From: Waddlia chondrophila WSU 86-1044
GTDB taxonomy: Bacteria; Chlamydiota; Chlamydiia; Chlamydiales; CAMCWV01
NCBI GenBank assembly: GCA_945882915.1
Contig: CAMCWV010000005.1
Span: 18,647 to 82,646, forward strand
Direction: 5' to 3'
Length of the DNA stretch: 64,000 nt
Below are positions 3,804 through 61,944 of the stretch, in pieces; position 1 is the first letter of the stretch, and every line of letters starts with the position of its first letter. Under the pieces are notes generated by a model that saw only the letters and a program-made list of their open reading frames with translations, did no database searches and was not told the DNA's origin. The translations under genes were made by a program, and so were the position numbers.

Positions 3804-3840
3804 ACTACAGCACACTAGGCAATGGGAGTCGCGCTATAGT

Positions 3841-6222: not shown

Positions 6223-6435
6223 CTTTCAATCCTTAACTGAATAAATTTTTATACTATTACACGCTGCGAAATTGTCGCTAACAGGGCTGTAGAAAAGGAG
6301 TTCCCTCTACAAAAAAAAACTGGATCAACACTATATTCATCTTATCTGAATTTGCAAGAAAAAAATGTAACCCCTTGCAACCAACCGCCCTTACAGGTTG
6401 CTACTCTTAAGCGCTGTAATTATATACTCCTCGTG

Positions 6436-6680
6436 CTTGACAGCGTTTAGCTTAGCGCCCGCTTAAGGAGCGAGCGGCAGCGTTGCTCTTTGGAGTGCTG
6501 GGACAAGTCCAACGCTTTGTTAGGACTCGACCTGTCGAGTCCACTGAACCTTAGCAAGCGAACCTGTGTGTCTGCCCCTCGACATGTCGAGGGCTGGTGA
6601 AAGCGTTGGACATGTCCCAGCACTCCAAAGAGTTCGCTTCGCTCACTCCTTAAACCCAACTGAGTTAAACGTTATCTGCC
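6436..6680. repeat. F2 element, copy b, with extended ends
   Basis: gcttgacagcgtttagc...cttaaggagcgagc...ctttggagtgctgggac ... gtcccagcactccaaagag...ctccttaa...gttaaacgtt. Flanked by 25-bp direct repeats at 6410-6434 and 6708-6732. Confidence 0.85.
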
Positions 6681-6718
6681 AGCTCTATTTTTTAAAGTAA
6701 GAGTCCCAGCGCTGTAAT

Positions 6719-6752
6719 TATATACTCCTCGTAGTTGAAAACGGGAATTTGG
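6719..6752 (+). repeat. F1 left-end fragment, fused to an F4 element
   Basis: tatatactcctcgtagttgaaaacgggaatttggg, then the sequence switches to F4. Confidence 0.8.
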
Positions 6753-8322: not shown

Positions 8323-8366
8323 AATAATAAGCTTTCGAAAGGAAGCTTATTAGAAGTTCAACATGA

Positions 8367-8407
8367 CTGCTACCGAAGCCTCACCGCTTTGGTAGCAGTT
8401 TTTTTTT
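8367..8407 (+). terminator. intrinsic terminator after the helicase gene
   Basis: 12-bp stem ctgctaccgaag/ctttggtagcag (one G-T pair) followed by T9. Confidence 0.8.
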
Positions 8408-8526
8408 GCCCCACAGGCTTAAAATATAATTTGACATCTCAAAGGATTAGACTTACTATTTAATTAAGTGGTGGATCTAACTTGGCATTGCTGTATAATT
8501 ATTTGTTTGATTATTCTTTATTCTTT

Positions 8527-8580
8527 CTGTGTCTCTGCGTTTCAAATATTTTAATATTAAATTTTTGAAACACAGATGCG
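8527..8580. repeat. F3 small AT-rich palindrome
   Basis: ctctgcgtttcaaa-N-tttgaaacacaga. A related copy lies at 38809-38852, with a partial match at 31118-31134. Confidence 0.55.
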
Positions 8581-8620
8581 TAATATGTACTCCTCGGTGA
8601 CGATCGGCAAAGGAATATTT

Positions 8621-10333: not shown

Positions 10334-10378
10334 CGGGCGCGGCGCCTCTTGTCCTTGTTTTTACTTTTCGAGGTTTTC

Positions 10379-10972
10379 ATGCCATTCAACACTGAAACGC
10401 GCGGCATCCAATTCGAATTCGATCCCGGAAAGCCCCCCCGTCGTCGGGAGGTCGCCGCGGCCGTCAAGCCGCCGCTCCACACGCTCTCGCTGCTTATGCG
10501 CAACAAACCGGGCGTCCTCGTGCGCATCTCGCTTGTCTTCTCGCGACGCGGCTATAACCTGGAGTCGCTGGTCTTGTCGCCGGCGCTCTCCGTCGAGGGC
10601 ATGGACGCGATGCCTGGAGAGTTCTCGCGGATGACGATCACCTGCTCGGGGGATCCCGATAGGCTCGAGCAGATCATCAAACAGATCGAGAAGCTGATCG
10701 ACGTGGTGCATGCCATCGATTACACGGGCAAAGCGGTGATCGAAACCGAAGTGGTCCTCGTGAAACTCAAGGCCAGCCTGAGCGGGCGCACCGAGATTCT
10801 CCAGATCGCCGAGAGCTTCAAGGCGACTGTCGGGGACTTCGGGTTGGAGTCGGTCATCCTCCAGTGCGCGGCGGAGACCGAGAAACTCGACGTGTTCATC
10901 GCGCAGCTCACCCCCTTCGGCATCATCGATCTGGTGCGCTCAGGCAAGATCCTGATGATATACTCCTCGTAG
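10379..10972 (+). CDS. ilvN: acetolactate synthase small (regulatory) subunit with ACT domain; the last codons and the stop lie inside an F1 element
   Basis: HTLSLLMRNKPGVLVRISLVFSRRGYNLESL is the ACT signature of IlvH/IlvN. The gene ends ..ATG ATA TAC TCC TCG TAG within the F1 terminus. The start is uncertain (10349 or 10379). Confidence 0.8.
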   Translation: MPFNTETRGIQFEFDPGKPPRRREVAAAVKPPLHTLSLLMRNKPGVLVRISLVFSRRGYNLESLVLSPALSVEGMDAMPGEFSRMTITCSGDPDRLEQIIKQIEKLIDVVHAIDYTGKAVIETEVVLVKLKASLSGRTEILQIAESFKATVGDFGLESVILQCAAETEKLDVFIAQLTPFGIIDLVRSGKILMIYSS

Positions 10973-11123
10973 CTGAAAATGGGAACTTGGACGGCGCCAA
11001 AGCCCCGGGGCTGAACGATCGCAAGCGCCCTTTGTATTTCTAATACTAAGGCACTTGCGATCGTTCAGCCGCGGGAGCTTTCGCGCTAGTGCAAATTCCC
11101 GTTTTCAACTACGAGGAGTATAT
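10958..11123 (+). repeat. F1 element, long form (about 166 bp)
   Basis: Full imperfect palindrome with central loop ctttgtatttctaatactaa. Confidence 0.9.
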
Positions 11124-11285
11124 ACTCCGCTTAGCTGAAAATGGGAACTTGGACGGCGCCAAAGCCCCGGGGCTGAACGATCGCAAGGGCCCTTTGTATT
11201 TCTAATACTAAGGCACTTGCGATCGTTCAGCCGCGGGGCTTTCGCGCTAGTGCAAATTCCCGTTTTCAACTACGAGGAGTATATA
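11119..11285 (+). repeat. F1 element, long form, head-to-tail with the previous copy (shared TATAT)
   Basis: Near-identical to 10958-11123. The left end is the GCTTA variant and the right end the CTACG variant. Confidence 0.9.
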
Positions 11286-11306
11286 CTCCTCGTAGCTGAA
11301 AACGGG
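11281..11306 (+). repeat. F1 left-end fragment
   Basis: atatactcctcgtagctgaaaacggg, then unrelated sequence. Confidence 0.8.
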
Positions 11307-11388
11307 CCGTTCAAGTACTGAGGGTCAAGAGTACCAGTGTCATGCTGTAAGGCTGCAATTACAATTATGCGGGCAAAGCTCGTCTAAA

Positions 11389-13215
11389 TCACTTCTCCAG
11401 CTGCTTATCGAAGCTCACCTTCGTTTCTTCATAAAGAAGTGCGAGCTGCTCTAATTCAGCAAAAAGCAAATCAAGCTTTCTTTTCTTATCGTCGATAGTC
11501 CTCGAAAGCGTTGCAATTGCAAGGCCATCTCCCTTTTGAGAAAGGGCTATGAGATCATGAACGGCTTTCTCGTTTTCTTGATCGAGTGCCATAACTTCAG
11601 CTTCAATCCGGTCCATCTTCTTCTGAATCGGCTGTAGAGCCTTTGATTTGCTATTAATAAGCTCTGTCCGCTTTTGTTTATTTTCACGCCGCTCTTCTGG
11701 CTTGAGCTTTACTTTTACCGCCTTCTCACTCCCCTGCTCCCAACCTTCTTTCTCCAAGAATTCCTCATACCCTCCCAAGAAAAGATGTTGATTTCCTTGA
11801 TGGCAGATCACAAACTTTGAAGGGACTTGCCGCAAAAACATTTCACTGTGGGTTACAATAACAACTGCCCCTTCAAATGAATCTAGGGCCATTAAAAGCG
11901 CCTCGATAGACTCCATGTCCAAGTGGTTCGTCGGCTCATCAAGCAGCAGCAGGTTGCAAGGAGTTGCGAGGATTTTCCCTAAGAGAACGCGGCTGCGCTC
12001 ACCTCCAGACAGCACAGAGATCTTTTTCTTTGCGTTATCATCAGAAAACATCATGATCCCGCAAATCCCCCTAACCTCCGTAAAGGTCATTCCAGGACGA
12101 ACAGAGGCGATCTCCTCTTCCACTGTCATATTAGGGCGAAGACGTTCAATGTTCGTTTGTCCAAAATAACCAATCTTCGCGTTATTTGAAGCCCTAACAG
12201 TGCCCTGATCAGGCTCAAGCTCCTGAGCAATAAGACGGAGAAATGTCGACTTTCCACGCCCGTTTTTTCCAACAACTGCAATCCGGTCATTCTTTTCAAT
12301 CCGAAGACTAAAATTCTGAATAATAGGAGTCTCGCGCTCATAGGCAAACGAGACCTCATTCACCTCCAAAAGCTTCTCTCCGGGTAAAGGGGCATACGAA
12401 AAATCAAAATCGAGATGGTGAAGCTGGGCAAGCTGTTCCAAAACAGGCATTCTTCCAATGGCTTTGGTCCTAGAGCGCGCCTGCCCCGCCTTACTTGCTT
12501 TTGCCCCAAAACGATCAACAAACGACTGGAGATGGTCTCTTTTTTTCTCCATATTCATGCGCGTCCGCTCATAGATCTCTTCTTCTTGTAAGAGCTGGGT
12601 GTAGAATTTCTCTGTTCCCCCCTCAGTCTTACGGATCCCTTTTCGATGAACTCCGAGTGTGTGCGTTGTCACGCTATCCATGAATTCGCGATCGTGGGAG
12701 ATAATAATCAGCTCGCCTTTCCAGCTGCGCAAAAACCGACCAAACCAGCGGACAGAAACAATATCAAGGTAGTTTGTAGGTTCATCCAAAAGTAGACAGT
12801 CAGGCTCACCAACAAGCACCTTTGTAAGATGAATACGGAGCTGATATCCCCCAGAAAACTTCGCAGGAGAGGCGTAAAGATCCTCTTCCTTAAATCCTAG
12901 ACCAAAAAGGATCTTCTCTACTTTATGCAGCTGGTCTTCATCCTGCGGGCGCAAACCTAAAGCCGCCTCTTGAAGCACTGTCTCTTGGGTGAACTTAAGA
13001 TGCTGATTCAAGTATCCAATCGAATAAAACTTAGGCGCAGAAATTATTCCCCCATCAGGCTTTTCTTCTCCGGTAATCATTCGCAAAAGGGTTGTCTTTC
13101 CTGAACCGTTACGCCCTATCAGGCCACACCGCTCTCCCTTATTTAACTTAAATGAGAGCCCTTCGAGGACCGTCTCCCCCATGTAGCTCTTGTTTAACCC
13201 TTCAACCTGAATCAT
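11389..13215 (-). CDS. ABC-F family ATPase (two ABC domains, C-terminal coiled coil)
   Basis: Two Walker A motifs (GRNGSGKTT, GKNGRGKST) and two signatures (FSGGYQLR, LSGGERSR). No membrane domain. Confidence 0.9.
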   Translation of the reverse strand: MIQVEGLNKSYMGETVLEGLSFKLNKGERCGLIGRNGSGKTTLLRMITGEEKPDGGIISAPKFYSIGYLNQHLKFTQETVLQEAALGLRPQDEDQLHKVEKILFGLGFKEEDLYASPAKFSGGYQLRIHLTKVLVGEPDCLLLDEPTNYLDIVSVRWFGRFLRSWKGELIIISHDREFMDSVTTHTLGVHRKGIRKTEGGTEKFYTQLLQEEEIYERTRMNMEKKRDHLQSFVDRFGAKASKAGQARSRTKAIGRMPVLEQLAQLHHLDFDFSYAPLPGEKLLEVNEVSFAYERETPIIQNFSLRIEKNDRIAVVGKNGRGKSTFLRLIAQELEPDQGTVRASNNAKIGYFGQTNIERLRPNMTVEEEIASVRPGMTFTEVRGICGIMMFSDDNAKKKISVLSGGERSRVLLGKILATPCNLLLLDEPTNHLDMESIEALLMALDSFEGAVVIVTHSEMFLRQVPSKFVICHQGNQHLFLGGYEEFLEKEGWEQGSEKAVKVKLKPEERRENKQKRTELINSKSKALQPIQKKMDRIEAEVMALDQENEKAVHDLIALSQKGDGLAIATLSRTIDDKKRKLDLLFAELEQLALLYEETKVSFDKQLEK

Positions 13216-15675: not shown

Positions 15676-16734
15676 TTATGCAGAGCAGAGTTCGCTCTCG
15701 CAGCTTGGTTCGCCTGCCTCAGCTTCTTCTTGCTTCTGAGGCTTAGAAAAGTCAGCTTCGTGCCAAGGGTAACTATTTAGCAACTCAAGAATTTCAGGAA
15801 TCGACTTTGAACGGTTGATCGACTCGCGAAGACCCCGAACACCCTGTCCATTGCGCAGGAACCAGCAACCTACTCTTCGGGTGTCAAATATCGCCTTACG
15901 CTCATCCTGATAGGCGATGATGTGCTGCACGTGCTCTAAAAGTGCATCTCTGAAGTGAATTGCTGTACGTGTTATGGGAGGCTCTCCAGCAAAATGGCGA
16001 TGGATATCTTCGATAAGCCAAGGCTGTCCCATCATCCCGCGCGCTAGCAAGATCGCATCACAACCGGTATCGATAAAGATTTTTTCAGCACTTTGAACAT
16101 CCACAATGTCCCCATTACCAATGACTTTAATGTTCTTTGCCACTTGCTTACACTCGCGGATATAATCCCACACTGCCGGCCCTTTATAGCCTTGAGAGCG
16201 CGTTCTGCCATGAATACAAATTGCTGCTGCGCCCGCCTCTTCCGCAATGCGGGTCACCTGCGGAGCTACGATGCTATTAGCATCCCATCCCACGCGGATC
16301 TTGACGGTGACAGGGATCTTTACAGCTGCGACCATATTCGAGATGATCTCTCCGATTAGGTCGGGATTTTTAAGCATTCCAGAGCCGCTTCCATCCTTTG
16401 TGACCTTATCGACTGGACAGCCGCAGTTTAAATCAACGACGTCAAAGCCCAAGTCTTCAATGATTTTGGCACACTCGGCTGCAAGTTCTGGCTTGCTGCC
16501 GCAAAGCTGCCCGCCAATAGGGTGCATAGAGGGGTCAAAGTCGAGGTAGCGGTAGGTCCCGGGATGATTACGCACTAGAGCGTCCATCTTGACCATTTCA
16601 CAGTAGACAAGGCCAGGCTGATACTTAACTGCCATCTTCCGGAAAGGGACGTCGGAGCAACCTGCCAAGGGGGCGCAGAAGACATTGGAAGGCAAAGAAA
16701 GGTTGCCAAGAGAGAAGGGGCGCTTTAAAGACAT
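15676..16734 (-). CDS. dus: tRNA-dihydrouridine synthase (DusB-like); the start codon is embedded in an F1 terminus
   Basis: CAPLAGCSDVPFR, DLNCGCP and IHGRT motifs. The 5' context on the coding strand is ctAGGAGtatATG. Confidence 0.88.
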   Translation of the reverse strand: MSLKRPFSLGNLSLPSNVFCAPLAGCSDVPFRKMAVKYQPGLVYCEMVKMDALVRNHPGTYRYLDFDPSMHPIGGQLCGSKPELAAECAKIIEDLGFDVVDLNCGCPVDKVTKDGSGSGMLKNPDLIGEIISNMVAAVKIPVTVKIRVGWDANSIVAPQVTRIAEEAGAAAICIHGRTRSQGYKGPAVWDYIRECKQVAKNIKVIGNGDIVDVQSAEKIFIDTGCDAILLARGMMGQPWLIEDIHRHFAGEPPITRTAIHFRDALLEHVQHIIAYQDERKAIFDTRRVGCWFLRNGQGVRGLRESINRSKSIPEILELLNSYPWHEADFSKPQKQEEAEAGEPSCESELCSA

Positions 16735-16899
16735 ATACTCCTAGTAGCTGAAAATGGGAACTTGGACGGCGCCAAAGCCCCGGGGCTGAACGATCGCAAG
16801 TGCCCTTTGTATTTCTAATACTAAGGCACTTGCGATCGTTCAGCCGCGGGAGCTTTCGCGCTAGCCCAAATTCCCGTTTTCAACTACGAGGAGTATATA
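16733..16899 (+). repeat. F1 element, long form
   Basis: Full palindrome, followed by a further left-end fragment at 16895-16910. Confidence 0.9.
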
Positions 16900-20931: not shown

Positions 20932-20965
20932 CCCGCTCTCCAAAAATTATAAACACTTGTTGTAG

Positions 20966-21132
20966 ATATACTCCTCGTAGTTGAAAATGGGAATTTGGAC
21001 TAGCGCGAAAGCTCCCGCGGCTGAACGATCGTAAGTGCCTTATTATTAGAAATACAAAGGGCACTTGCAATCGTTCAGCCCCGGGGCTTTGGCGCCGTCC
21101 AAGTTCCAATTTTCAGCTACGAGGAGTATATA
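20966..21132 (-). repeat. F1 element, long form, inverted orientation
   Basis: Arms and loop (ttattattagaaatacaaagg) are the reverse complement of the 10958 copy. Confidence 0.9.
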
Positions 21133-26940: not shown

Positions 26941-27039
26941 CGCTAATTTCATAAAACACCTCTCTCAAATAACTAAAGGCAGAAGTAAGCTCTTACTTCT
27001 GCCTTTAGTGTTGCTTCAACAAATATTAGAAAACACAAC

Positions 27040-27114
27040 ATATACTCCGCTTGGCTGAAAACGGGAGCTTTCGCGCTAGTCCAAATTCCCGTTTTCAAAT
27101 AGGAGGAGTATATA
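27040..27114. repeat. F1 element, short form
   Basis: atatactccgcttggctgaaaacggg...ccaaattcccgttttcaaataggaggagtatata. Confidence 0.85.
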
Positions 27115-27690
27115 AAAGACCACACCTCTTGTCAGCGCTGCAAATGGGTCCCTGAAGGCAATCCACTCTACGAAGCTTATCACGACACTGAATGGGGCGT
27201 TCCTGTTCACGATGACAGAACGCATTTCGAATTCTTAATTCTTGAAGGGGCGCAGGCTGGACTTAGCTGGCTGACACTCCTTAAAAGGCGCGAAGGCTAC
27301 CGCAAGGCATTTGCTGGCTTCGATCCAAAGAAGGTGGCTGCCTACGACGATACTAAGATCGCTGAGCTACTCGCCTTTGAAGGGATCATCCGCAACAAGC
27401 TTAAAGTTGCTGGCGCAGTAGTGAATGCAAGGCTTTTTCTGGAGATTCAAAAGGAGTTTGGGAGCTTTGATAAGTACATCTGGCGGTTTGTTAACGGAAA
27501 AACCATTCGAAATAAACGAGAGACCATTAAAGATCTGCCCACAGAAACCGCAGAGTCGCAGGCGCTAAGCAAGGACTTGAAGAAAAGAGGCTTTAAGTTC
27601 GTTGGCGGGGTGATCATGTACGCCCACATGCAAGCAACAGGGCTTGTTAATGACCACACCGTGGACTGCTTCCGCTACAAACAGGTCTAA
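27112..27690 (+). CDS. tag: DNA-3-methyladenine glycosylase I with no canonical start codon (the frame opens inside the F1 element)
   Basis: CQRCKWV..NPLYEAYHD.EWGVP...EGAQAGLSW...GLVNDH matches Tag along its full length. An in-frame TAG sits at 27100. No ATG, GTG or TTG occurs before the conserved N-terminal Cys motif. ATA at 27112 lies 5 nt after AGGAGG. Confidence 0.65.
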   Translation: MKDHTSCQRCKWVPEGNPLYEAYHDTEWGVPVHDDRTHFEFLILEGAQAGLSWLTLLKRREGYRKAFAGFDPKKVAAYDDTKIAELLAFEGIIRNKLKVAGAVVNARLFLEIQKEFGSFDKYIWRFVNGKTIRNKRETIKDLPTETAESQALSKDLKKRGFKFVGGVIMYAHMQATGLVNDHTVDCFRYKQV

Positions 27691-27857
27691 TCTCTCTGTC
27701 TAGCTTTAAGCTGTTTGAGCTTGTGCCTGCTCTTTAGCAAATTGGGGAGAGCGCAAAACGCCTACCGTAAAAAACACCATTAAAGACACTGCAACAAAAG
27801 CAACTAAGCAAGGCATTAAAGGATCGCCGTTGTAGAGGTAACCGGTAAGTGCCACAA

Positions 27858-28285
27858 ATATACTCGCTTATACCCAGGGCGCTGCCCTCGGCTGTTTGCA
27901 ATTACAGCCTTTCAGGCTGCGTGAAATATATTCGCTTATACCCAGGGCGCTGCCCTCGGCTGTTTGCAATTACAGCCTTTCAGGCTGCGTGAAATATACT
28001 CGCTTATACCCAGGGCGCTGCCCTGGGCTGTTTGCAATTGCAGCCTTTCAGGCTGCGTGAAATATACTCGCTTATACCCAGGGCGCTGCCCTGGGCTGTT
28101 TGCAATTGCAGCCTTTCAGGCTGCGTGAAATATGTTCGCTTATACCCAGGGCGCTGCCCTGGGCTGTTTGCAATTGCAGCCTTTCAGGCTGCGTGAAATA
28201 TACTCGCTTATACCCAGGGCGCTGCCCTGGGCTGTTTGCAATTGCAGCCTTTCAGGCTGCGTGAAATATGTTCGCTTATACTCTT
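27858..28285. repeat. 68-bp tandem array, 6 full units plus a partial seventh
   Basis: Unit starts (tcgcttata) at 27864, 27932, 28000, 28068, 28136, 28204 and 28272. Each unit contains the hairpins cccagggcgctgccctggg and gcagcctttcaggctgc. Confidence 0.95.
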
Positions 28286-32438: not shown

Positions 32439-33947
32439 ATGCGCATATCTTCACCCAGAACACCTTCATTCGACGAGGCGTTTAATAATCTCAAACGACT
32501 TGGAGATTATTCTGAGACCAAAAAAGAGGGGGCCCACATAAGAGAAGCGTTTGTGAGCAGCTTTGGGGGGAGCCTTATCATCCCTAAAAACACGCTGACA
32601 GGAAAGCTTATCTCTTGTGTCGACTGGATAAGCCATCAGCTCAACCGTCTATTCAAAGTCATCCATCTAGCCTATAACCTAACAGAAGGGACCCAGCGCC
32701 TTCTTAACGCGATCAAAAGCTCTGGAGCAGCATTAGCCCTCCAGAGCGTAGACAAAAAGCAGATGCTCGAATCTATTTGCAAAAAACTGCCCGCACGATC
32801 AGAGAGCCCTTTAGATGAGATTGAACAGCAAGTCGACACCATTCGCAAACAGCTTTTGCCCGAAACCACAGGGGCAGGGCCCCCTCCCCCGCCAAAAAGA
32901 GTCACCGCTCCTTCTTCTGTCTCAGGAGAGCAAGTTTCAGAAGAGGTTAAAAATGCTTCGCTTCTTCTTATAACACAGGCCGTCATTGAAACAGCTATGC
33001 CTGTCTTGAAAAATCTATTAGAAGGGTACATTGCCTTTCAAAAGGCCTATAAAGAATACCAGCAGAGGCCCCCTTCAAAAGGGGCCTCCGAAGAAGGGAG
33101 CCTGCAAGAAAAGAAAGTAGAGTTGCTAATTGAACATTGCGGAATGCCAGAAGCGCAGTGGATAGCAACTGGTACAAAGACCTTACAGCCCATCCTCGAA
33201 AACCTCAACACTCAAGGCCTAGGCAATCTTCTTGATATGCCCTTACTTACAGGCCTTATCTCATGTTTTGAAGACCCCGCGCCTTCTCTCGCAAACATGC
33301 TTTTAAAACTTTTAGAGCCTAAACAGTTTTTCGAAAGCTTACGCCCTCAGATAGAGGCAACGCCATCATCTAAACAACCGGCGTCAGCTCAAGAACAAGT
33401 AGCAGCGCCCCCCTCTACAGGAGAGTTTGACTATGGCAAAGGGCTTCTCACTCTTGCAGAGCCACTTCTAGACATCTTAATTCCAAAAACTTTTGCCTTC
33501 GGGCTTAACCGTTCCCTTGCAGGCAAGGCTGTGAATTCAGCTCTAGATGACATAAAAAAAACCGTTGATACAGCTCTTGCAACGCCTCCAACTCCAGAGG
33601 CTGAGCAGGCCCTAAAAGAGCAGGTGGTTAGTTTTGCAAAAAGAAGCTTCAGTGGCGATCTTGTAGGTGGTGATTTAAGCGAAACAGATAGAGCTATATT
33701 CAAAGCAGCGCTTACTACACGGTGGCTTGGTGAGGTTGAGGTGCTAAAAGAAGGGCTCTCTTCCGGGAAAAAACTCCTCCTAAATGCAGTCCCTACGACA
33801 GCTGCTATCGATGCAGCAGCGGAGGCGATCTCGACCCTCTGCTCGCACAAAGCCATCTTCTGCAAGTTCACATTTGAATTTCTAGCCGCGCTATCAAAAA
33901 ACCCGAAAATGAATATAGCCCTCAACCAGCTCGGCCTCAACAAATAA
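32439..33947 (+). CDS. hypothetical soluble protein with a poly-proline tract
   Basis: 502-codon ORF containing GAGPPPPPKR. No recognisable domain. Confidence 0.65.
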   Translation: MRISSPRTPSFDEAFNNLKRLGDYSETKKEGAHIREAFVSSFGGSLIIPKNTLTGKLISCVDWISHQLNRLFKVIHLAYNLTEGTQRLLNAIKSSGAALALQSVDKKQMLESICKKLPARSESPLDEIEQQVDTIRKQLLPETTGAGPPPPPKRVTAPSSVSGEQVSEEVKNASLLLITQAVIETAMPVLKNLLEGYIAFQKAYKEYQQRPPSKGASEEGSLQEKKVELLIEHCGMPEAQWIATGTKTLQPILENLNTQGLGNLLDMPLLTGLISCFEDPAPSLANMLLKLLEPKQFFESLRPQIEATPSSKQPASAQEQVAAPPSTGEFDYGKGLLTLAEPLLDILIPKTFAFGLNRSLAGKAVNSALDDIKKTVDTALATPPTPEAEQALKEQVVSFAKRSFSGDLVGGDLSETDRAIFKAALTTRWLGEVEVLKEGLSSGKKLLLNAVPTTAAIDAAAEAISTLCSHKAIFCKFTFEFLAALSKNPKMNIALNQLGLNK

Positions 33948-34000
33948 GCAATTGCCCTCACCTGAAGGCATAGTCGATTAAATCTCAAATGATAGGCTCA

Positions 34001-34136
34001 GACAGCGCCAAAGCTCGCGGGATTAAACAATCGTAAGCAGTTCAATATTAGAAATATAGGCCTGCTTACGATCGTTCAGCCGCGGGAGCTTTCGCGCTAG
34101 ACCAAATTCCCATTTTCAGCTACAAGGAATATATAC
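34001..34136 (+). repeat. F1 element, divergent, lacking the left terminus
   Basis: ..gcgccaaagc..cgtaagcag ttcaatattagaaatatagg cctgcttacgatcgttcagccgcggg...cattttcagctacaaggaatatata. Confidence 0.75.
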
Positions 34137-34893: not shown

Positions 34894-35060
34894 TATATAC
34901 TCCTCGTAGCTGAAAATGGGAACTTGGACGGCGCCAAAACCCCGGGGCTGAACGATTGCAAGTGCCCTTTGTATTTCTAATACTAAGGCACTTACGACCG
35001 TTCAGCCCCGGGAGCTTTCGCGCTAGTCCAAATTCCCGTTTTCAACTACGAGGAGTATAT
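34894..35060 (+). repeat. F1 element, long form
   Basis: Full palindrome. Confidence 0.9.
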
Positions 35061-35101
35061 TAATCGAATTAGGTGCTTGAAAAAGAAAAAAATGCGAAAA
35101 C

Positions 35102-37980: not shown

Positions 37981-38500
37981 TTATGAACACAAGTGAACAG
38001 TTCTTTTAAAATATACATCACTAGGGCAGTGATAGTCCAAAGACTGGAGCAATCTCTCGTTATTGTAGAAACGAAAATACCTACCAATGCCCTCTCGAGC
38101 CATTTTTAAAGACTCATAACTCTTTAAATAAATATCTTCATACTTCAAAGACCGCCACACGCGCTCTAGTATGCCTGTAAAGGCTAAACTCGTAAATTGC
38201 ACGCCCTGATCCGTATTGAAAATCTCTGGTTTCCCATTCTTCAAGGCCTCTTCAAGAGCCTCAATACAAAACCCGGCATCAAGTGTATTTGATCCAGTGC
38301 GCGGCAAACCCCGCCCTAAAGGACGGGGTTTGCCGCGCACTGGATCAACTGTAGATTATAGACCGTTTCCTCGGGAGGCTCCAGGTAATAGGAGGAGCGG
38401 TTTAACCCTAAAAGTCGACATTGATGAGCAAGAGAAAAATCTTGGTCAGCAATGTCGACGACAGCCCAACGCTCTTTTAGAGCTAAAGTCCAAGTTTTTT
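37981..38500 (-). pseudogene. IS3-family OrfB (DDE integrase) remnant; the N-terminal part of the catalytic core is missing
   Basis: HTH part (FSLAHQCRLLGLNRSSYYLEP) and C-terminal rve part (NTDQGVQFTS...YNNERLLQSLDY) are separated only by a 56-bp palindrome. Confidence 0.7.
38291..38346. repeat. 56-bp near-perfect palindrome (27-nt arms, one mismatch, 2-nt loop) at the OrfB deletion point
   Basis: gatccagtgcgcggcaaaccccgccct aa aggacggggtttgccgcgcactggatc. Confidence 0.9.
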
Positions 38501-38739
38501 TTAAGCCAATCAATCTCTATGGTTAATTGACCTACCTTGCGTTCCAAATCAGCTTTTACAGATTCTGCGTCTGTTCCTTTCTTGGATTGTCGTTCGAAAA
38601 GAGACTCTGCGCCATCTAACAATGCTTTTTTCCATTGAGCAACTTGCAAGGGATGAATCCCATATTGCCGCGCGATCTCATTTACAGTCCGTTCAACCTT
38701 CAGCGCTTCAATGGCAACTTTTTTCGTAACAGTCCACAT
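38446..38739 (-). CDS. IS3-family transposase OrfA (HTH plus leucine zipper)
   Basis: VNEIARQYGIHPLQVAQWKK..., coiled-coil tail. gaaggagg lies 3 nt before the ATG. Confidence 0.75.
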   Translation of the reverse strand: MWTVTKKVAIEALKVERTVNEIARQYGIHPLQVAQWKKALLDGAESLFERQSKKGTDAESVKADLERKVGQLTIEIDWLKKNLDFSSKRALGCRRHC

Positions 38740-39608: not shown

Positions 39609-40161
39609 AATCTAATAAACAAACTAACTTTACAAAGATTGACATTAAGGATTTAGCCTTATTTGTGCACAAACACTAGAAGATAGCGGCATTAAAAGCG
39701 TTCTTGTAGGGGGCGCCCGCGTTTCCATCTGCACAGAAAATCGTTACCAATCCTATGATCTGGACTTTGTGACGCATTCAGACTTGAAAAAGATCCGAAA
39801 GGTCTTAGCAGAGATTGGATTTCATGAAAAAGACCGATACTTCACTCATCCCGAATGTCCCTATTTAATTGAATTCTGCACCCCACCTGTTGCCGTAGGA
39901 AATGAACCTGTAAAAGATTACCAAAGAATCGAATCTCCGATAGGAACTTTGGAGCTTCTCACACCAACAGATTGTGTAAGAGACAGGCTGTCACATTATT
40001 ACCATGGGGGAGATGCTCAAGGATTAAAACAAGCTCTAATGGTTGCTAGAAGCCATAAAGTTGATCTACAAGACATTAAAGAATGGTCTCGCAAAGAAAA
40101 GGCCTCTAGCAAATACCTTAAATTTCAAAATGAGCTCCACTCGTCCAAAAAAGACTCTTGA
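39605..40161 (+). pseudogene. nucleotidyltransferase-fold protein, apparently frameshifted near 39670
   Basis: A frame-2 N-terminus (VKSNKQ..KDLALF) stops at 39677. It continues in frame 1 as ..LEDSGIKSVLVGGARVSI...YDLDF (NTase G-G..D.D pattern). Confidence 0.5.
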
Positions 40162-40213
40162 AGATGGATCGCGTAATACTTGCGTAACTAGTGTGGATTG
40201 GGAGGGGAAAGGT

Positions 40214-40296
40214 TGGGGACGGCTGGATTCGAACCAACGAACTCGTAAGAGAAGAGATTTACAGTCTCTCGCAATTGGCCACTCTGCCACATCCCC
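40214..40296 (-). tRNA. tRNA-Tyr (GTA), long variable arm
   Basis: Cloverleaf read by hand: acceptor GGGGATG/CGTCCCC, anticodon loop ctGTAaa, T-loop GGTTCGAATCC. Confidence 0.9.
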
Positions 40297-40314
40297 AAAA
40301 CTAGAAAAAAAATT

Positions 40315-40387
40315 TGCTGGCGAAAGGATTCGAACCCTCGACCGGCCGATTACAAATCGGCTGCTCTACCAACTGAGCTACACCAGC
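40315..40387 (-). tRNA. tRNA-Thr (TGT)
   Basis: Acceptor GCTGGTG/CGCCAGC, D-loop AGCTCAGTTGGTAGAGC, anticodon loop ttTGTaa, T-loop GGTTCGAATCC. Confidence 0.9.
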
Positions 40388-40463
40388 ATATATACTCCTC
40401 TTAGTTGAAAACGGAAGCTTTGGCGCTAGCCCAAATTCCCGTTTTCAACTAAGAGGAGTATAT
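40388..40463. repeat. F1 element, short form, abutting the 5' end of tRNA-Thr
   Basis: atatatactcctcttagttgaaaacgg...ccaaattcccgttttcaactaagaggagtatat. Confidence 0.85.
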
Positions 40464-40527
40464 CTCTAAAAGATGATAAAGAGACTGCCTTTATAACAAA
40501 GAAGCCCTTTTATCCTCAACGAGTTTA

Positions 40528-40960: not shown

Positions 40961-41035
40961 ATATATACTCCTCGTAGCTGAAAATGGGAATTTGGACGGC
41001 GCCAAAGCCCCGTTTTCAGCTAAGAGGAGTATATA
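40961..41035. repeat. F1 element, short form
   Basis: atatatactcctcgtagctgaaaatgggaatttggacggcgccaaagccccgttttcagctaagaggagtatata. Confidence 0.85.
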
Positions 41036-44289: not shown

Positions 44290-44456
44290 TATATACTCCT
44301 CGTAGCTGAAAATGGGAAATTGGACGGCGCCAAAGCCCCGGGGCTGAACGATCGCAAGTGCCCTTTGTATTTCTAATACTAAGGCACTTACGATCGTTCA
44401 GCCGCGGGAGCTTTCGCGCTAGTCCAAGTTCCCATTTTCAGCTACGAGGAATATAT
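44290..44456 (+). repeat. F1 element, long form; its right end supplies the SD and part of the ATG of the next gene
   Basis: Full palindrome ending gctacGAGGAatatAT|G. Confidence 0.9.
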
Positions 44457-44940
44457 GCAAGACTTGAGGTTCACCAAAGTCTTATCCAGATTTTCATGCT
44501 GGATAATAGCTTTAATTCTCACAGCTTTTGGGCTTTTAACAACCAGCTGCCAAAGCAAAGAAGCAAGGTTGCAAGCCAAAAGTCAGCTCAAAGGGGAAGA
44601 AATCATCCGCCAGCTTATTACTGAATTGCAAGACATTCACTCACGAGAAGAGCTCGTAACGGCATCTTCCAAGCTAAAAGCCCTTTTTAACGACCTTGTA
44701 GATGTCATAATCCAAGCAAGAGAACAGGCAGCAGAGCGGGCAGGAAATAAGACTTTGGCAATAAATCCAGAGCAATCTCAAAAGCAAATGACAATTCTCA
44801 GTCAGCAGCTCCAAGTCGAACTTGCGCGGATTTATATATTAGAAGGAGGGCGAGCCCTCACAGAAACAGCTCAGGCCAAGGCGCTTAACCGCCTGGACCT
44901 CTTGGAGAAAAGATCGAAAGGACAGACTTATAGTCGATAA
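44455..44940 (+). CDS. putative lipoprotein, helical
   Basis: Signal peptide ending LLTTSC. Rest uncharacterised. Confidence 0.6.
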   Translation: MQDLRFTKVLSRFSCWIIALILTAFGLLTTSCQSKEARLQAKSQLKGEEIIRQLITELQDIHSREELVTASSKLKALFNDLVDVIIQAREQAAERAGNKTLAINPEQSQKQMTILSQQLQVELARIYILEGGRALTETAQAKALNRLDLLEKRSKGQTYSR

Positions 44941-45056: not shown

Positions 45057-45066
45057 CTATCAAGCC

Positions 45067-45166
45067 TATACTCCTCGTAGCTGAAAACGGGAATTTGGGC
45101 TAGCGCGAAAGCTCCCAGGGCTTTGGCGCCGTCCAAATTCCCGTTTTCAGCTACGAGGAGTATATA
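45067..45166 (-). repeat. F1 element, medium form (about 100 bp)
   Basis: Both termini plus gggctagcgcgaaagctcccagggctttggcgccgtcc. Lacks the central loop segment. Confidence 0.85.
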
Positions 45167-46819: not shown

Positions 46820-48532
46820 ATGATCCGAGGAACGCCACCTGCTGTTGGAGCTCACACTATCCTTAAAGAGCTTGGGCAGGATGGCTTTGGTATCGTTTAT
46901 GAAGCGCAAGACGAGAAAAAACAGCCCATCCTGCTCCGAGTGATTGCTCCGGAAATTTCTAATAACGACAACTTTGTCGTCCGCTTTGAATTGCTAAAAG
47001 CCATCCTCCCCTCAATAGAGCATAAAAACCTTCTTAAAGTAATTGAGCTCGGATCTCATAAAAACATCTTCTTTATTGCTAAAGAGCGCCCTGGGGTAGA
47101 CGGCAAAGCCTTAAATGCGAGCCTACAGACGCTAAATTCATTCGACTTCACAAACACCTCTAGCAACACTCTTGGACGGCACCGCACACTACTTGAGCTC
47201 TTTGAAGGAATTGCTCAAGGGCTCTCTGCCCTTGAGCAGGTGCGCAAAAGCTATTACAAACATGGGATCCTCCACAACAGCTTAAAACCCGATAACATTT
47301 ATATTTTTTCTAACTCCGCGCAAGGAATTCTGTCTCAAGGCACCCCAAGTCCTAAGCTAGATGGTTATGCGGAGCCGTTTTTGTTTTTTGGAGACGGTCC
47401 ACAGTCGCTTCTTCACTATCGAATGGCAACGCCTCTAGCTACTGCTAAAAGACTTAATCAAGAAAAGAACGGGATCCAAAGCAGTCCTCTTAATTTATAC
47501 GGCTATGAACCATTTTACCCGCCGGAATCTCGTCAAGGACTCCCCCTGCACCCCACCTCTATGCAGTATGCTTTTGGAGCTCTTCTTTACCACCACATTA
47601 GCAAACAACATCCAAAAGGGTTGTTTATTCCGCTCAAAGAGCATGACGGCTCTTTAGACCCTCTTTGGGATGAAATCGTCAACCGATGCCTAGCCTCTCC
47701 TCATGGTGGCGGTTATGCGAATATGGGAGAGGTTGCTGGACATCTAAAAAAACAACTCGTCTCTCATCTAGAGCTTTCTCCTGAAGAGAAGAAAATAAAA
47801 AGTATTAAGCCGCCTGCTGGAATGGCACTTGTCGCCTGTTTAGAAAAAGTTGAGATCGGCGCTCATGATGGCCCCGAGAATGAACAGCCCCCCTTCCGGA
47901 TGCGCATCAAGCCATTTTTTATGGATATCTTCCCTGTAACGTTTAAGCAATTTAAAGAGTGCATGCCTCTTTACACGGGCAGTGACTATTCGAGGGGAGA
48001 CAACCTCCCCGCTACACTAATTTCAATCTCTATGGCCAAGGCCTACTGCAGATGGAGAAGCGAAAAAGAAGGGCTGCCACCGCAAACCTACCGTCTGCCA
48101 ACAGAATATGAGTGGGAAGCTGCTGCCAGAGGACAAGGAGGGCTCCAGTATCCGTGGGGAGCTACACAAGATCCCCTTCAGCTCTATTGCAATAAAGACA
48201 AAGAACGAGGAACAATTGCATTAGGACAGCTACCTGCCGGCAGATTTGGCCTTCATGACATGCTAGGAAATGTGTGGGAATGGACAGATTCACTATTTCA
48301 CCCCCACCCCTTTGCAAAGGGAGCTGAAAAGCCTGTATCGCCTAAGCTACACGTCGCAAAAGGCGGGTGCTGGCTCACTCCCCTCGAGCTCTGCAGAGGC
48401 AGTCTCAGGCAAGGCTTTGCCCCACACGAGCCAAAAGCAAACATCGGATTCCGCTGCGCCCGGAACGTCGATTATATACTCCTCGCAGCTGAAAATCGGC
48501 ATCTGGACGGCGCCAAAGCCCCGGGGCCTTAG
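46820..48532 (+). CDS. Pkn1-like fusion: N-terminal protein-kinase-like domain (catalytic motifs degenerate) plus C-terminal FGE/SUMF1-type domain; the last ~20 codons are F1-derived
   Basis: Kinase-like LGQDGFGIVYEA, LLRVI, HNSLKPDN and LDGYA. FGE motifs RLPTEYEWEAAARG, GNVWEWT and GFRCAR. The tail DYILLAAENRHLDGAKAPGP is encoded by the F1 element. Confidence 0.8.
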   Translation: MIRGTPPAVGAHTILKELGQDGFGIVYEAQDEKKQPILLRVIAPEISNNDNFVVRFELLKAILPSIEHKNLLKVIELGSHKNIFFIAKERPGVDGKALNASLQTLNSFDFTNTSSNTLGRHRTLLELFEGIAQGLSALEQVRKSYYKHGILHNSLKPDNIYIFSNSAQGILSQGTPSPKLDGYAEPFLFFGDGPQSLLHYRMATPLATAKRLNQEKNGIQSSPLNLYGYEPFYPPESRQGLPLHPTSMQYAFGALLYHHISKQHPKGLFIPLKEHDGSLDPLWDEIVNRCLASPHGGGYANMGEVAGHLKKQLVSHLELSPEEKKIKSIKPPAGMALVACLEKVEIGAHDGPENEQPPFRMRIKPFFMDIFPVTFKQFKECMPLYTGSDYSRGDNLPATLISISMAKAYCRWRSEKEGLPPQTYRLPTEYEWEAAARGQGGLQYPWGATQDPLQLYCNKDKERGTIALGQLPAGRFGLHDMLGNVWEWTDSLFHPHPFAKGAEKPVSPKLHVAKGGCWLTPLELCRGSLRQGFAPHEPKANIGFRCARNVDYILLAAENRHLDGAKAPGP

Positions 48533-48636
48533 CGTTTGCCCTCTCCAGAAGGTAACCCTTTAATTGCTACGGGCTTCTTCTCTTTTTTTCTTTTGTGCGC
48601 CGTCCACATTCCCGTTTTCAACTACGAGGAGTATAT
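48473..48636. repeat. F1 element whose centre is replaced by other sequence (includes an F4 piece at about 48528-48562)
   Basis: Left end tatatactcctcgcagctgaaaatcgg..ggacggcgccaaagccccgggg. Right end gcgccgtccacattcccgttttcaactacgaggagtatat. Confidence 0.8.
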
Positions 48637-48893
48637 TTAAGGAGCGAGCGTAAGGGAAGCTCTTTGGAGTGCTGGGACAAGTCCAACGCTTTCACCAGTC
48701 CTCGACATGTCGAGGACTGTACGAAACTCTCGCTTACTAAGGCTGAGTGGACTCGACATGTCCAGGCGTACGATGTGGTGGACTGCTACGCTTTACTAAC
48801 CCAACAAGGGCGTACACTCCTCGACATGTCGAGGAGTGTTGAAAGCGTTGGACAAGTCCCAGCACTCCAAAGATCGAGCGATGCTCGATCCTT
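48637..48893. repeat. F2 element, copy f (longest, three CGACATGTC hairpins)
   Basis: ttaaggagcgagcg...ctttggagtgctgggacaagtcc ... ggacaagtcccagcactccaaagatcgagcg..ccttaa. Confidence 0.85.
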
Positions 48894-48920
48894 AAATATA
48901 CGCCTCTTAGCTGAAAAAAA
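48894..48920 (+). repeat. F1 left-end fragment
   Basis: atatacgcctcttagctgaaaaaaaa. Confidence 0.7.
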
Positions 48921-49172
48921 ACCGCGGAAGCGGTAATTAAGCGGCAAAGCCGCGGCAGATGCTAGCCGTAGGTGCCCGAAGGGAACCTGCGGAAGTGTGT
49001 ATAAAAAAACGCAGGGCCGCGGCCAGCGGCGACACTCTTTCTGTGAGAAATGTCGCCACTGACCGTGGCTTACTATTATAATTCTACTAGTCCGTAGGTT
49101 TCCCTCGGTCACCTACGGCTAGCATCTGCAACGGCCTTGCCGCTTAATTACCGCTGCCGCGGTTTAAATAAC
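48920..49172. repeat. F6 GC-rich element, full hairpin form
   Basis: Arms aaccgcggaagcggtaattaagcggcaaagccgcggcagatgctagccgtagg.. and ..cctacggctagcatctgcaacggccttgccgcttaattaccgctgccgcggttt. Confidence 0.8.
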
Positions 49173-49335: not shown

Positions 49336-49920
49336 TTATTCCCAGCGCTTGGTGGGAGGAGACTTTAATTTTAGGGCGTCAAAGGCTCTGGCGACGATGA
49401 ATGATTCGACATCGTCCATGTTTTTGGGATGCAAATACCACGCAGGCATAGGTGGTAGCACCACGCCGCCCATACGCGTAATCTTAAGCATGTTCTCAAG
49501 GTGAATTTCGGAAAGGGGTGCTTCACGAGGGACAACAATAAATGGGCGTCTCTCCTTGAGAACAACATCTGCAGCGCGCCGCAAAAGGTTGTCTGCAAGC
49601 CCCAAAGCTATCGCAGCTAAACTTGCCATGCTACAAGGAATAACGATCATCCCATCAGTAAGAAAAGAACCACTTGCAATAGAAGCAGAAAAATCAGAAA
49701 TACTATGACAAGTCACGCGCTTTTGGACCTCTTTAGAATAGAGTTTCATCCACTTCTCGCCACTCGCATACTCTGTGCCAAGCTCTTCAATAGCCGTAAA
49801 GCAAGCACCTTTCGACAAAACAAGGTGGACATGATGCCCTGCAAGGGCAAGTGCTTCTACCATACGATAACCAAGAATAATTCCTGAGGCTCCTGAAACC
49901 CCTACAACAATACGGCTCAT
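49336..49920 (-). CDS. ubiX: flavin prenyltransferase UbiX
   Basis: RIVVGVSGASG, the PCSM.SLAAIA pattern, about 190 aa. Confidence 0.88.
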   Translation of the reverse strand: MSRIVVGVSGASGIILGYRMVEALALAGHHVHLVLSKGACFTAIEELGTEYASGEKWMKLYSKEVQKRVTCHSISDFSASIASGSFLTDGMIVIPCSMASLAAIALGLADNLLRRAADVVLKERRPFIVVPREAPLSEIHLENMLKITRMGGVVLPPMPAWYLHPKNMDDVESFIVARAFDALKLKSPPTKRWE

Positions 49921-50193
49921 ATTATAATATCCTCATCTTAGCTGAAAACTGGAAAAATTATCCTAAACAAGCGCTTGCCCTTTCTAGAAGGTAACGTGGA
50001 CCGCCTAAGGTCTTGGATTTCAGACCCAAGCCTACAACAAACGTTTGATTAGTGGTAGGTTAGACCCCAGACCGGGACGGCTCACGTTGCCTTCTGGAGA
50101 GGGTAAACGCTTGTTTTGAGGCTTCCAGGTGAAAAATCGTGATTTTTGTGGAAACTTAAAGAGCTTGTTTTCAGCTAAGAGAAGGATATAACT
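49921..50193. repeat. composite: degenerate F1 termini enclosing a full F4 palindrome
   Basis: Left ataatatcctcatcttagctgaaaactgg. F4 at 49975-50118 (gaaggtaacgtggaccgcctaaggtc ... gacggctcacgttgccttc). Right gttttcagctaagagaaggatata. Confidence 0.7.
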
Positions 50194-60710: not shown

Positions 60711-60749
60711 GGGCCTAAGACTCCTTGAACTCTATCCGGCAGAGTACTA

Positions 60750-60916
60750 ATATACTCCTCGTAGCTGAAAATGGGAATTTGGACGGCGCCAAAGCCCCGG
60801 GGCTGAACGATCGTAAGTACCCTTTGTATTTCTAATACTAAGGCACTTACGATCATTCAGCCGCGGGAGCTTTCGCGCTAGCCCAAATTCTCGTTTTCAA
60901 CTACGAGGAGTATATA
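60750..60916 (+). repeat. F1 element, long form
   Basis: Full palindrome. Confidence 0.9.
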
Positions 60917-61007
60917 TTCCTTTTAGCTGAAAATGGGAATTTGGGCTAGCGCGAAAGCTCCCGCGGCTGAATGATCGCAAGTCGCCCAATATTAAAAATA
61001 TACTCCT
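60911..61007 (-). repeat. F1 element, truncated (left half only)
   Basis: tatatattccttttagctgaaaatgggaatttgggctagcgcgaaagctcccgcggctgaatgatcgcaag, then diverges. Confidence 0.8.
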
Positions 61008-61096
61008 CTTAGCTGAAAACGGGAATTTGGATGGCGCCAAAGCCCCGGGGCTTTGGCGCCATCCAAATTCCCGTTTTCACCTAAGAGGAGTATATA
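61008..61096. repeat. F1 element, medium form, near-perfect palindrome
   Basis: ...ggatggcgccaaagccccggggctttggcgccatcc..., with TCTTA/TAAGA termini. Confidence 0.9.
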
Positions 61097-61156: not shown

Positions 61157-61549
61157 ATGTTCATTATAAAAAGAACCTACCACTTTGAAGCTGGACACAA
61201 CCTGCCGCTCGTCAAAGGAAAGTGCCAAACACCTCATGGCCACTCTTTTCTCTTAATAGTAAGTTTAAAGTCCCCAACTCTCAAGACAAAAGGGGCAGAA
61301 AAAAACATGATCACCCCTTTTGAAAAGATTGATGCCCTTGTCATGCCGATGATGCAAAAGTGGTTTGACCACAAATGGCTAAACGAAAGCCTCAAAACAG
61401 ACGCTCCTACTTGTGAGTTTATGGCTAAGTGGATTTATGACCACCTAAAGCCAAGCCTTCCCGCCCTCTACTCGATTGAAGTCTCTGAAAACGCTCTCTG
61501 CACCGCCATTTATATACTCCGCTTAGCTGAAAATGGAAGTTTGGGCTAG
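61157..61549 (+). CDS. queD: 6-carboxytetrahydropterin / 6-pyruvoyl-tetrahydropterin synthase family; the last ~12 codons are F1-derived
   Basis: YHFEAGHNLP and C..PHGHSF catalytic motifs. The tail YILRLAENGSLG is encoded by the F1 element. Confidence 0.8.
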   Translation: MFIIKRTYHFEAGHNLPLVKGKCQTPHGHSFLLIVSLKSPTLKTKGAEKNMITPFEKIDALVMPMMQKWFDHKWLNESLKTDAPTCEFMAKWIYDHLKPSLPALYSIEVSENALCTAIYILRLAENGSLG

Positions 61550-61595
61550 CGCGAAAGCTAGCCCAAACTTCCATTTTCAGCTAAGCGGAGTATAT
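61511..61595. repeat. F1 element, short-medium form, perfect palindrome
   Basis: tatatactccgcttagctgaaaatggaagtttgggctagcgcgaaagctagcccaaacttccattttcagctaagcggagtatat. Confidence 0.9.
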
Positions 61596-61596
61596 T

Positions 61597-61756
61597 AAGC
61601 CACGGTCAGTGGCTACATTTCTCACAGAAAGGGTGTCGCCGCTGGCCGCGGCCCTGCGTTTTTTATACGCATTTCCGTAGGTTCCCTTCGGTCACCTGCG
61701 GCTAGCATCTGCCGCGGCTTCGCCGCTTAATTACCGCTGCCGCGGTTCAAATAACC
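61597..61756 (-). repeat. F6 element, half form
   Basis: Reverse complement of about 48920-49075 (aagccacggtcagtgg..gccgctggccgcggccctgcg...gctagcatctgccgcggcttcgccgcttaattaccgctgccgcggtt). Confidence 0.8.
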
Positions 61757-61944
61757 AAGAAGATTCTTCATGCGACTGCCCTTCCACATCCCCTGTAAGC
61801 ATCAAATTACTATTTGTACAATCGCCCCGGCCCAGCGCTCCTCCTGAGCTACTGCCTGGTTTTAACCTTATCTTTTGATTGCGTTTTTCGAGGTACTTCT
61901 ATATACTGATTACATTTATTATAAACTTCAGGAGAAACCCTTAA

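Follow-up and report, generated by a model that had tools for sequence, protein, structure and literature searches.

The ends of a palindromic repeat, termed F1, supply the present stop codons and C-terminal tails of four bona fide genes at their 3' ends: ilvN, the gene of a kinase-like protein with an FGE-sulfatase domain, a UbiA/MqnP-like prenyltransferase gene (ubiA) and queD. All four lie in the window, the whole 64-kb stretch of DNA that was analysed. We propose that F1 is a recently active, high-copy, non-autonomous MITE-like inverted-repeat family of an uncultured environmental chlamydia, a member of the Chlamydiales, and that the tails encoded by its ends are functionless, presumably neutral by-products tolerated at the C-terminus. 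Taken as a whole, we consider this explanation very probable. The first-pass annotation of this DNA had listed the same four open reading frames as running into F1 ends, and all of them were recovered in place. The coordinates are collected in Table 1.

Table 1. F1 copies in the window and the genes that adjoin them
Feature	Position	Strand	Remarks
Other complete F1 copies	1613-1688, 20965-21132, 40962-41035, 45065-45166, 60749-60916, 60997-61096
ilvN, acetolactate synthase small subunit	10349..10972	+	start probably ATG at 10379
Tandem F1 array	10957..11310	.	two full copies (168, 167 bp) and one truncated copy, period 162 bp
Dus	15676..16734	-	start ATG 16732-16734, its AT being the F1 end
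F1 copy adjoining the Dus start	16732..16899	.	outward end ..TAGGAGTATATG with ribosome-binding site and AT of ATG
F1 copy before Tag (3-methyladenine glycosylase)	27039..27114	.	76 bp; ends ..AGGAGGAGTATATA
F1 reference copy	34894..35061	.	canonical, intergenic, 168 bp
F1 copy adjoining the 5' end of tRNA-Thr	40389..40464	.	76 bp; tRNA-Thr 40314-40388, minus strand
F1 copy before the 161-aa ORF	44290..44457	.	outward end ..GAGGAATATATG overlaps the start codon; far flank catGAGGAG
161-aa ORF	44455..44940		start codon overlaps the F1 end, as in Dus
Kinase-like and FGE-sulfatase-domain protein, 570-573 aa	46811/46820..48532	+
F1 copy at the 3' end of the kinase-like/FGE gene	48473..48637	.	165 bp, diverged interior
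F1 copy between ubiA and ubiX	49926..50190	.	265 bp, degenerate termini, composite interior
UbiA/MqnP-like prenyltransferase, 291 aa	50175..51050	-
queD, 130 aa	61157..61549	+
F1 copy at the queD 3' end	61511..61596	.	86 bp, perfect hairpin

The F1 family and its reading frames

The consensus of the F1 terminus, TATATACTCCTCKTAGCTGA, has 39 matches at up to three mismatches in the window, against 0.01 expected by chance. There are 16 complete copies and about eight partial ones (~24 in all), which together take up 2.56 kb, 4% of the window; five more copies are found in 26 kb of other contigs. The copies range from 74 to 265 bp and fall into size classes of 74-76, 86, 100-102, 165-168 and 265 bp, all of them built on one common inverted repeat of ~36 bp with variable internal modules. 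The terminal inverted repeats are near-perfect and the entire element forms one hairpin, whose two sides bear GAAAA and GTTTTC; its energy is -119 kcal/mol for the consensus and ranges from -44 to -119 kcal/mol among the copies. Pairwise identity between the seven long copies is 92-97%, and none of the six frames is open along the long form. F1 fits the descriptive definition of a MITE, being small, non-coding, bounded by terminal inverted repeats and present in many dispersed copies.

The tetranucleotide ATAT stands at both sides of each F1 copy, followed by a variable outward base, and tandem copies have a single TATATA in common, their period of 162 bp corresponding to one element together with one ATAT. 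Read most economically, F1 would insert into ATAT (or the inner TA) and duplicate the target. This duplication and the native gene ends given below are reconstructions; no empty F1 site was found in any assembly retrievable for the window proteins, all of which are 99.3-100% identical and share the insertions. The search for a transposase gene with F1 ends, or for another autonomous partner, gave none in ~90 kb. A 1.85-kb segment between the terminus at 32289 and a remnant at 33990-34135 was considered as a parent transposon and rejected: the 502-aa ORF within it (32439-33947) resembles an unremarkable hypothetical protein and bears no signature of a transposase. No F1 termini occur close to the IS3-like fragments at 37981-38739. 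A search of Rfam found no family matching F1, a plasmid database held nothing similar, and the JGI metagenomes gave no match to an F1 26-mer.

Read inward, the terminus is TATATACTCCTC(G/T)TAGCTGA; read outward, it ends in ..CGAGGAGTATAT. The first-pass annotation had seen TAG and TGA in two frames of the inward end, and this holds for nearly all copies: frame +1 reads I-Y-S-S-TAG and closes after four codons, and frame +2 reads Y-T-P-R-S-TGA and closes after five. Frame 0 (TAT ATA CTC..) is open for 12 codons on the B side, to a stop in GGAC-TAG-CG, and for 28 codons on the A side. Of the ORFs with 60 or more codons that enter an F1 terminus, only the four named above are genes, with ilvN and ubiA using frame +1 and the kinase-like/FGE gene and queD using frame 0; the TGA frame (+2) is used by no real gene in the window. 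The other ORFs were discarded as genes: that at 40043-40408 overlaps two tRNAs, that at 48595-48936 lies within repeats, and the remaining long ones are uncalled and have no family match.

Gene ends formed by F1

In all four genes, the conserved domains are complete and end 0-5 residues ahead of F1 according to Pfam, NCBIfam and PDB alignments. These alignments and the orthologues described below, which have no such tails, bear out the earlier proposal that F1 at 3' ends supplies stops and tails. The kinase-like/FGE protein reads ..GFRCARNVD and then YILLAAENRHLDGAKAPGP up to the stop TAG (48473-48532), the frame staying open for 19 codons. Residue 551 (GFRCAR) is the last one covered by the FGE-sulfatase profile, and F1 begins at residue 555. 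This F1 copy is the most diverged one, with TCGCAG in place of TCGTAG, a change without consequence for the frame that is read. For the kinase-like/FGE and UbiA-like proteins, the best orthologues show 40-51% identity and belong to Waddliaceae, Simkania, Parachlamydiales and other Chlamydiales MAGs. An alignment with orthologues, the check suggested by the first-pass annotation, revealed the YIL..AEN tail in 0 of 35 kinase orthologues; their tails after GFRC.R are most commonly four residues (11/35) or five residues long, and the 22 residues of the window protein are the longest. If F1 is removed with one ATAT, the gene would read GAT TAT ATT TAA, and ..CARNVDYI followed by a stop is a plausible native end, its TAA being part of the TTAA with which an adjacent repeat, F2, terminates.

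The end of ubiA reads ..GGA GTT ATA TCC TTC TCT TAG, in which the right F1 terminus gives SFS and the TAG. The match to the UbiA-like profile extends to residue 286 (profile position 278 of 282), and the tail is found in none of 119 UbiA orthologues. Removal of F1 with one ATAT would yield GGA GTT ATA TTA TAA T ATG, and the protein could plausibly have ended as ..IGVIL, one base before the ATG of ubiX. The same end point occurs in nine of the 119 orthologues, including that of Simkania; those inspected individually have GAIL, GALL or GSIL before the stop. The two genes that can be reconstructed would thus each meet an immediate in-frame TAA, and their restored ends match the lengths of the orthologues.

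For the two other genes, the native end cannot be rebuilt. The ilvN gene ends ..CTG ATG ATA TAC TCC TCG TAG, with its stop at 10970-10972, and the first terminus of the tandem F1 array provides (I)YSS and the TAG; reconstruction is prevented by the truncated copy with which the array closes. Homology stops at residue 203, where the IlvN profile stands at position 154-155 of 158-164, and solved IlvN homologues continue for ~10 residues past this point. QueD reads ..CTAI and then, from 61511, YILRLAENGSLG to its stop, F1 giving (YI)LRLAENGSLG and the TAG (12 codons); here, reconstruction is prevented because another repeat follows F1. The match to the PTPS profile extends to residue 119 of QueD (profile position 118 of 121). 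This residue, a tyrosine, corresponds to residue 118 in the E. coli QueD of 121 residues, whose structure continues for three more residues.

On the insertion model, a target within the last one to three codons of a gene would leave the native stop on the far side of F1, and translation would enter the inverted repeat as far as the first in-frame stop, that is a TAG after four codons, a TGA after five or, in the third frame, a stop after 12-28 codons. The Y-I or I with which each tail opens is probably native rather than part of F1, because it would derive from the duplicated ATAT target. The recurring motif YIL..AEN had been presented as encoded by F1; the tails are indeed derived from the element, with the exception of this leading YI or I, which most likely belongs to the native target.

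We have to consider whether anything is translated into F1 at all. The extended ORFs could be artefacts of repeat mis-assembly, or pseudogenes, and it is true that contigs break at F1 arrays, that the tandem copy number after ilvN differs between assemblies and that both ilvB and ilvN, which lie in a GC-rich island, were missed by the metagenome gene caller. However, independent assemblies from ENA, Logan and NCBI agree exactly on the gene-F1 junctions. Stretches of the window are 99.9-100% identical to contigs of several ENA metagenome assemblies and Logan runs, and another part of the same genome is present in the NCBI MAG GCA_947441125.1. The sole difference at F1 loci is one tandem copy fewer after ilvN in another assembly, which could be an assembly collapse; the other loci are identical. 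Moreover, the four ORFs are full length with complete domains, and the kinase, UbiA and QueD proteins were called with their tails. An artefact is hardly credible in the light of these results.

It can also be hypothesised that F1 has spread a functional module in the form of the tail YIL..AENG.L.., for instance a degron or sorting signal, and that selection has kept it as a C-terminal counterpart of the Rickettsia palindromic elements. This proposition would agree with the presence of the same motif in the same frame in two unrelated window proteins and in P0121, a protein of another contig, and with the ubiA insertion, which is common to a strain at 99.3% identity; the latter shows that the insertion is not brand new, and nothing beyond that. 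Against this, the tails are of unequal length (3-4, 12 and 19 residues) and are read in two frames, and in the most diverged copy, that of the kinase gene, the departures from the consensus are non-synonymous (V to A, G to R, N to H). Conservation of F1 tracks the DNA palindrome and not the codons. The tail is also absent from the orthologues, and a HMMER scan of 1.8 billion representative proteins with a 34-aa F1 peptide found two short ORFs only. A polyprotein query of all open F1 frames against 5.8 billion sequences, in which tails as short as these score too low, gave one weak match, P0121. No sign of tail function was found in the frames, lengths, substitutions, orthologues or protein library, and a selected module is very improbable. 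Tolerated by-products of insertion remain our preferred explanation of the tails.

Start codons, tRNA genes and distribution over spacers

The first-pass annotation had regarded F1 as confined to C-termini, a view that could not be sustained, since start codons, the tRNA-Thr gene, a ferredoxin-like ORF and P0121 are affected as well. Read outward, the terminus GAGGAGTATAT corresponds to a predicted ribosome-binding site and spacer. For Dus, the sole alternative in-frame ATG would lose the conserved APLAG motif. The far flank of F1 at Dus and at ORF 44455 reads ..GGAG, and excision would restore GGAG-T-ATATG in both. Tag (Adenine_glyco) is without a canonical start, its conserved N-terminus KDHTSCQRCKW coming directly after GGAGTATATA, which leaves either an ATA start or a recent pseudogene; F1 probably adjoins its start codon (27112). 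The ORF that runs into the terminus at 27039 was tested as the N-terminal half of Tag and rejected. In P0121, a 102-bp F1 copy is read in frame 0 within the called protein, adding 96 bp or 32 codons, and the downstream 32 codons may represent read-through. The same contig bears a solo F1 terminus after the first 27 residues of a ferredoxin-like ORF, which it interrupts. Within the window, no F1 copy lies inside a gene and all four translated cases are terminal.

F1 occupies 17 of 54 spacers, and the spacer types are equally occupied (divergent 4/12, convergent 3/12, co-directional 10/30); by this measure F1 shows no preference for 3' ends. The free ATAT sites comprise 34 intergenic ones, four at ATATG starts and one at a gene end, and about 17 loci are occupied, three at starts and two to four at ends. 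F1 overlaps a gene end at four of 17 loci, where 0.5-2.3 would be expected if insertion were uniform over intergenic sites or the last 2-10 codons, with any base, TA, TATA or ATAT as target. The probability of at least four such loci is 0.001-0.35 depending on the model, and the excess is nominally significant under some nulls (P = 0.001-0.03). Four of five gene-end ATAT sites are occupied, versus ~28% of the other intergenic ATAT sites. An excess at gene ends, the subject of a genome-wide count proposed in the earlier note, is present within the window in the counts, but it is marginal, with P values of up to 0.35. These data fit a repeat that has filled about one-third of the permissive ATAT sites, with a gene-end excess that is at most modest; some genuine preference for gene ends may nevertheless exist.

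It is distinctly unlikely, in our opinion, that F1 is targeted to or kept at gene 3' ends because its hairpin acts as a terminator, mRNA stabiliser or RNase III site, in the manner of REP or Correia sequences, with terminus stops selected for a flush fit to coding sequence. The very stable hairpins with their GAAAA and GTTTTC sides would suit such a role, as would the overlaps with gene ends and the occupancy of gene-end ATAT sites. Yet divergent promoter spacers are occupied as often as convergent ones, and F1 lies directly before start codons and a tRNA. Furthermore, no F1 copy passes simple terminator criteria in a scan for terminator and promoter consensus, the T run being only four bases long. 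Selection of the stops themselves is called into question by the observation that two of three frames are closed within 20 nt in 10.8% of all window 20-mers.

A wider proposal is that the F1 terminus is a two-way gene-boundary cassette. Inward, it closes two frames within five codons; outward, GAGGAG and a five-base spacer ending in AT would rebuild a ribosome-binding site and part of a start codon. Thus, F1 would insert seamlessly into the tight junctions of stop, ribosome-binding site and start found in a compact genome, possibly favouring sites similar to its own end (GGAGT-ATAT), and would now be the working stop of at least four genes and the working initiation region of two or three (Dus, ORF 44455, and Tag with an ATA start). 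We regard this reading as unlikely. The outward face of F1 doubling as a ribosome-binding site at starts is the less familiar point, and it is offered as a lead and not as a finding. Under the explanation that we favour, copies inserted in ..ATATG would keep the downstream gene translatable because the outward terminus provides a ribosome-binding site and spacer. The inward stops and this outward site could together make gene boundaries permissive for a selfish element found in one-third of the spacers.

Relation to known repeats and significance

Rickettsia palindromic elements are characteristically inserted within ORFs, in frame. F1 resembles them as a translated palindromic repeat of an intracellular bacterium (32 codons in P0121), but it is overwhelmingly intergenic, its long form is closed in six frames and its in-window cases are terminal. 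No in-frame insertion within an ORF is seen for F1 in the window, P0121 being a possible case outside it. The kinship with these elements suggested in the first-pass annotation thus gives way to another comparison: judged by analogy, the closest counterparts of F1 would be MITEs and REPs overlapping gene 3' ends, namely QMITEs, ERIC/RU-1, Correia elements and GTAG REPs.

The Correia elements of Neisseria carry an IHF site and are flanked by a TA duplication. The short Correia form is open in one frame and occurs fused to ORFs, and the long form is intergenic and closed in all frames (Delihas 2008, PMC2229807). Among the enterobacterial RU-1/ERIC sequences, one abolished the usual stop in an Erwinia amidase gene and lengthened the protein (Delihas 2007, PMC2759123). 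F1 shares with both families the construction of size classes on one inverted repeat, its 102-bp and 168-bp copies paralleling the short and long forms; it differs from them in sequence, in host and in a far higher density (4% of the window, one-third of the spacers). In Coxiella burnetii, QMITE1 and QMITE2 touch functional genes only at the 3' end, with an overlap of 1-50 bp (Wachter et al. 2018, PMC5896051), and QMITE2 supplies the C-terminal 33 aa of EnhC, for which the authors invoke tolerance of the C-terminus (PMC5896051). A comparison by description brings F1 close to the QMITEs in its terminal inverted repeats, its intracellular bacterial host and its position at gene 3' ends. The host phyla differ, however, F1 has a fixed ATAT boundary whereas each QMITE2 copy has a unique direct repeat, and an outward ribosome-binding site at start codons, present in F1, is not described for QMITEs. 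ORFs that flank GTAG REPs often take their TAG stop from the REP termini, and some of these REPs are located inside ORFs (Di Nocera et al. 2013, PMC3733652). GTAG is also present in many F1 copies, but GTAG REPs are palindromes of 20-40 bp with a terminal GTAG and a tie to RAYT transposases, whereas F1 measures 74-265 bp and has its GTAG, often TTAG, 12 nt inside. No Y1/RAYT gene was found among the scanned window proteins, and F1 stands apart from REPs and REPINs, which bear a terminal GTAG or CGTC tag, in size, in the position of GTAG and in the RAYT gene.

F1 is a new family in a new host that behaves like known ones, and it involves no new mechanism: the donation of stops and tails by repeat ends is known in Coxiella, enterobacteria, Neisseria and GTAG REPs. 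For metagenome annotation, the consequence is that C-terminal tails, stops and some start regions are derived from F1; gene callers were wrong on the start of Dus and missed the N-terminus of Tag. At the level of the organism, F1 shows a heavy loading of the gene boundaries of an environmental chlamydia by a selfish hairpin repeat.

Other repeats, their contacts with F1, and transposase fragments

The palindromic, MITE-like repeat family F1 is accompanied in the window by two further families, F2 and F3, and is in contact with both of them. F2 directly adjoins F1 ends at at least three sites, and an identical 24-nt string that includes an F1 terminus is found on both sides of one F2 copy (6410-6440 and 6708-6738). 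F3 comes after the F1 copy 3' of queD. Downstream of ubiX it is inverted, and there an F1 terminus forms one end of it. A similarity to the F1 terminus was also observed at the start of the 68-bp tandem unit, AAATATACTCGCTTA. The gene bearing the in-frame coding repeat differs between assemblies by one 18-nt unit at 5957. The IS3-family transposase fragments, which look degraded, have no F1 termini in their vicinity. Six of the seven long F1 copies in the window (165-168 bp) place their two sides, A and B, in the same orientation on the + strand, a bias for which the two-sided P is ~0.13 with a sample (n=7) too small to judge; GC skew is negative throughout the window.

Features in contact with F1, and other repeats, on the window and on contig L012 of the same genome
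Feature	Sequence	Coordinates	Details
F2	window	1689-1760, 6445-6718, 48638-48894	second repeat family; ends TTAAGGAGCGAGC.. / ..GCTCG.TCCTTAA
F3	window	48895-49165, 61597-61770	third repeat; TAAGCCACGGTCAGTGGC...CCGCGGTT
Tandem repeat	window	27856-28281	68-bp unit, 6.3 copies, 97% identity
In-frame coding repeat	window	5921-6067	18/36 bp; within gene 5443-6222, minus strand
IS3-family transposase fragments	window	37981-38739	rve_3, HTH_Tnp_1; minus strand
Dus start codon	window	16732-16734	overlaps final 2 bases of F1 terminus GGAGTATATG
161-aa ORF start codon	window	44455-44457	overlaps final 2 bases of F1 terminus GGAGTATATG
tRNA-Thr and F1 copy	window	40314-40464	F1 76 bp; its first base adjoins tRNA-Thr 5' end
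F1 copy in P0121	L012	4348-4449	102 bp; in-frame read-through within 3613-4548
Called 78-aa ORF	L012	9824-10060	residues 1-27 resemble 4Fe-4S ferredoxin (CIKCKYTDCVDVCPVDC)

Variation at ilvN and ubiX

The ilvB-ilvN segment (~8000-11400), in which the metagenome gene caller placed antisense ORFs rather than ilvB and ilvN, has a G+C content of 54-56% against ~46% elsewhere, and is probably a horizontally acquired island. It is bordered on its 3' side by a tandem F1 array (10957-11310), which is one full copy shorter in assembly ERZ27280265 (L022), reflecting either a true copy-number polymorphism or an assembly collapse. In the 99.3% identical strain (ERZ28614158, L025; window 49336-49385), divergence is complete from 49385 on, within the 3' end of ubiX. 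UbiX there carries a different 30-aa tail, and the downstream genes (a glycosyltransferase and an epimerase) differ from those of the window, which reflects rearrangement of the region or else chimerism of the contig.

F1 within and at the borders of genes

On L012, the F1 copy in P0121, a called hypothetical protein of 311 aa, contributes 96 bp (32 codons) and is followed by 32 further codons. It may represent an RPE-like internal insertion, or mere read-through into a one-time 3' flank. Beyond its ferredoxin-like residues, the 78-aa ORF continues into a solo F1 terminus and then into unrelated sequence; this gene is truncated or fused. F1 also adjoins a tRNA gene, tRNA-Thr, after which tRNA-Tyr follows on the minus strand. 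At 27112-27117, the frame of Tag (3-methyladenine glycosylase) begins immediately 3' of GGAGTATATA without an ATG, GTG or TTG start, which implies an ATA start or else a pseudogene. For Dus and the 161-aa ORF, the overlap of the start codons with the F1 terminus suggests that F1 provides their ribosome-binding site.
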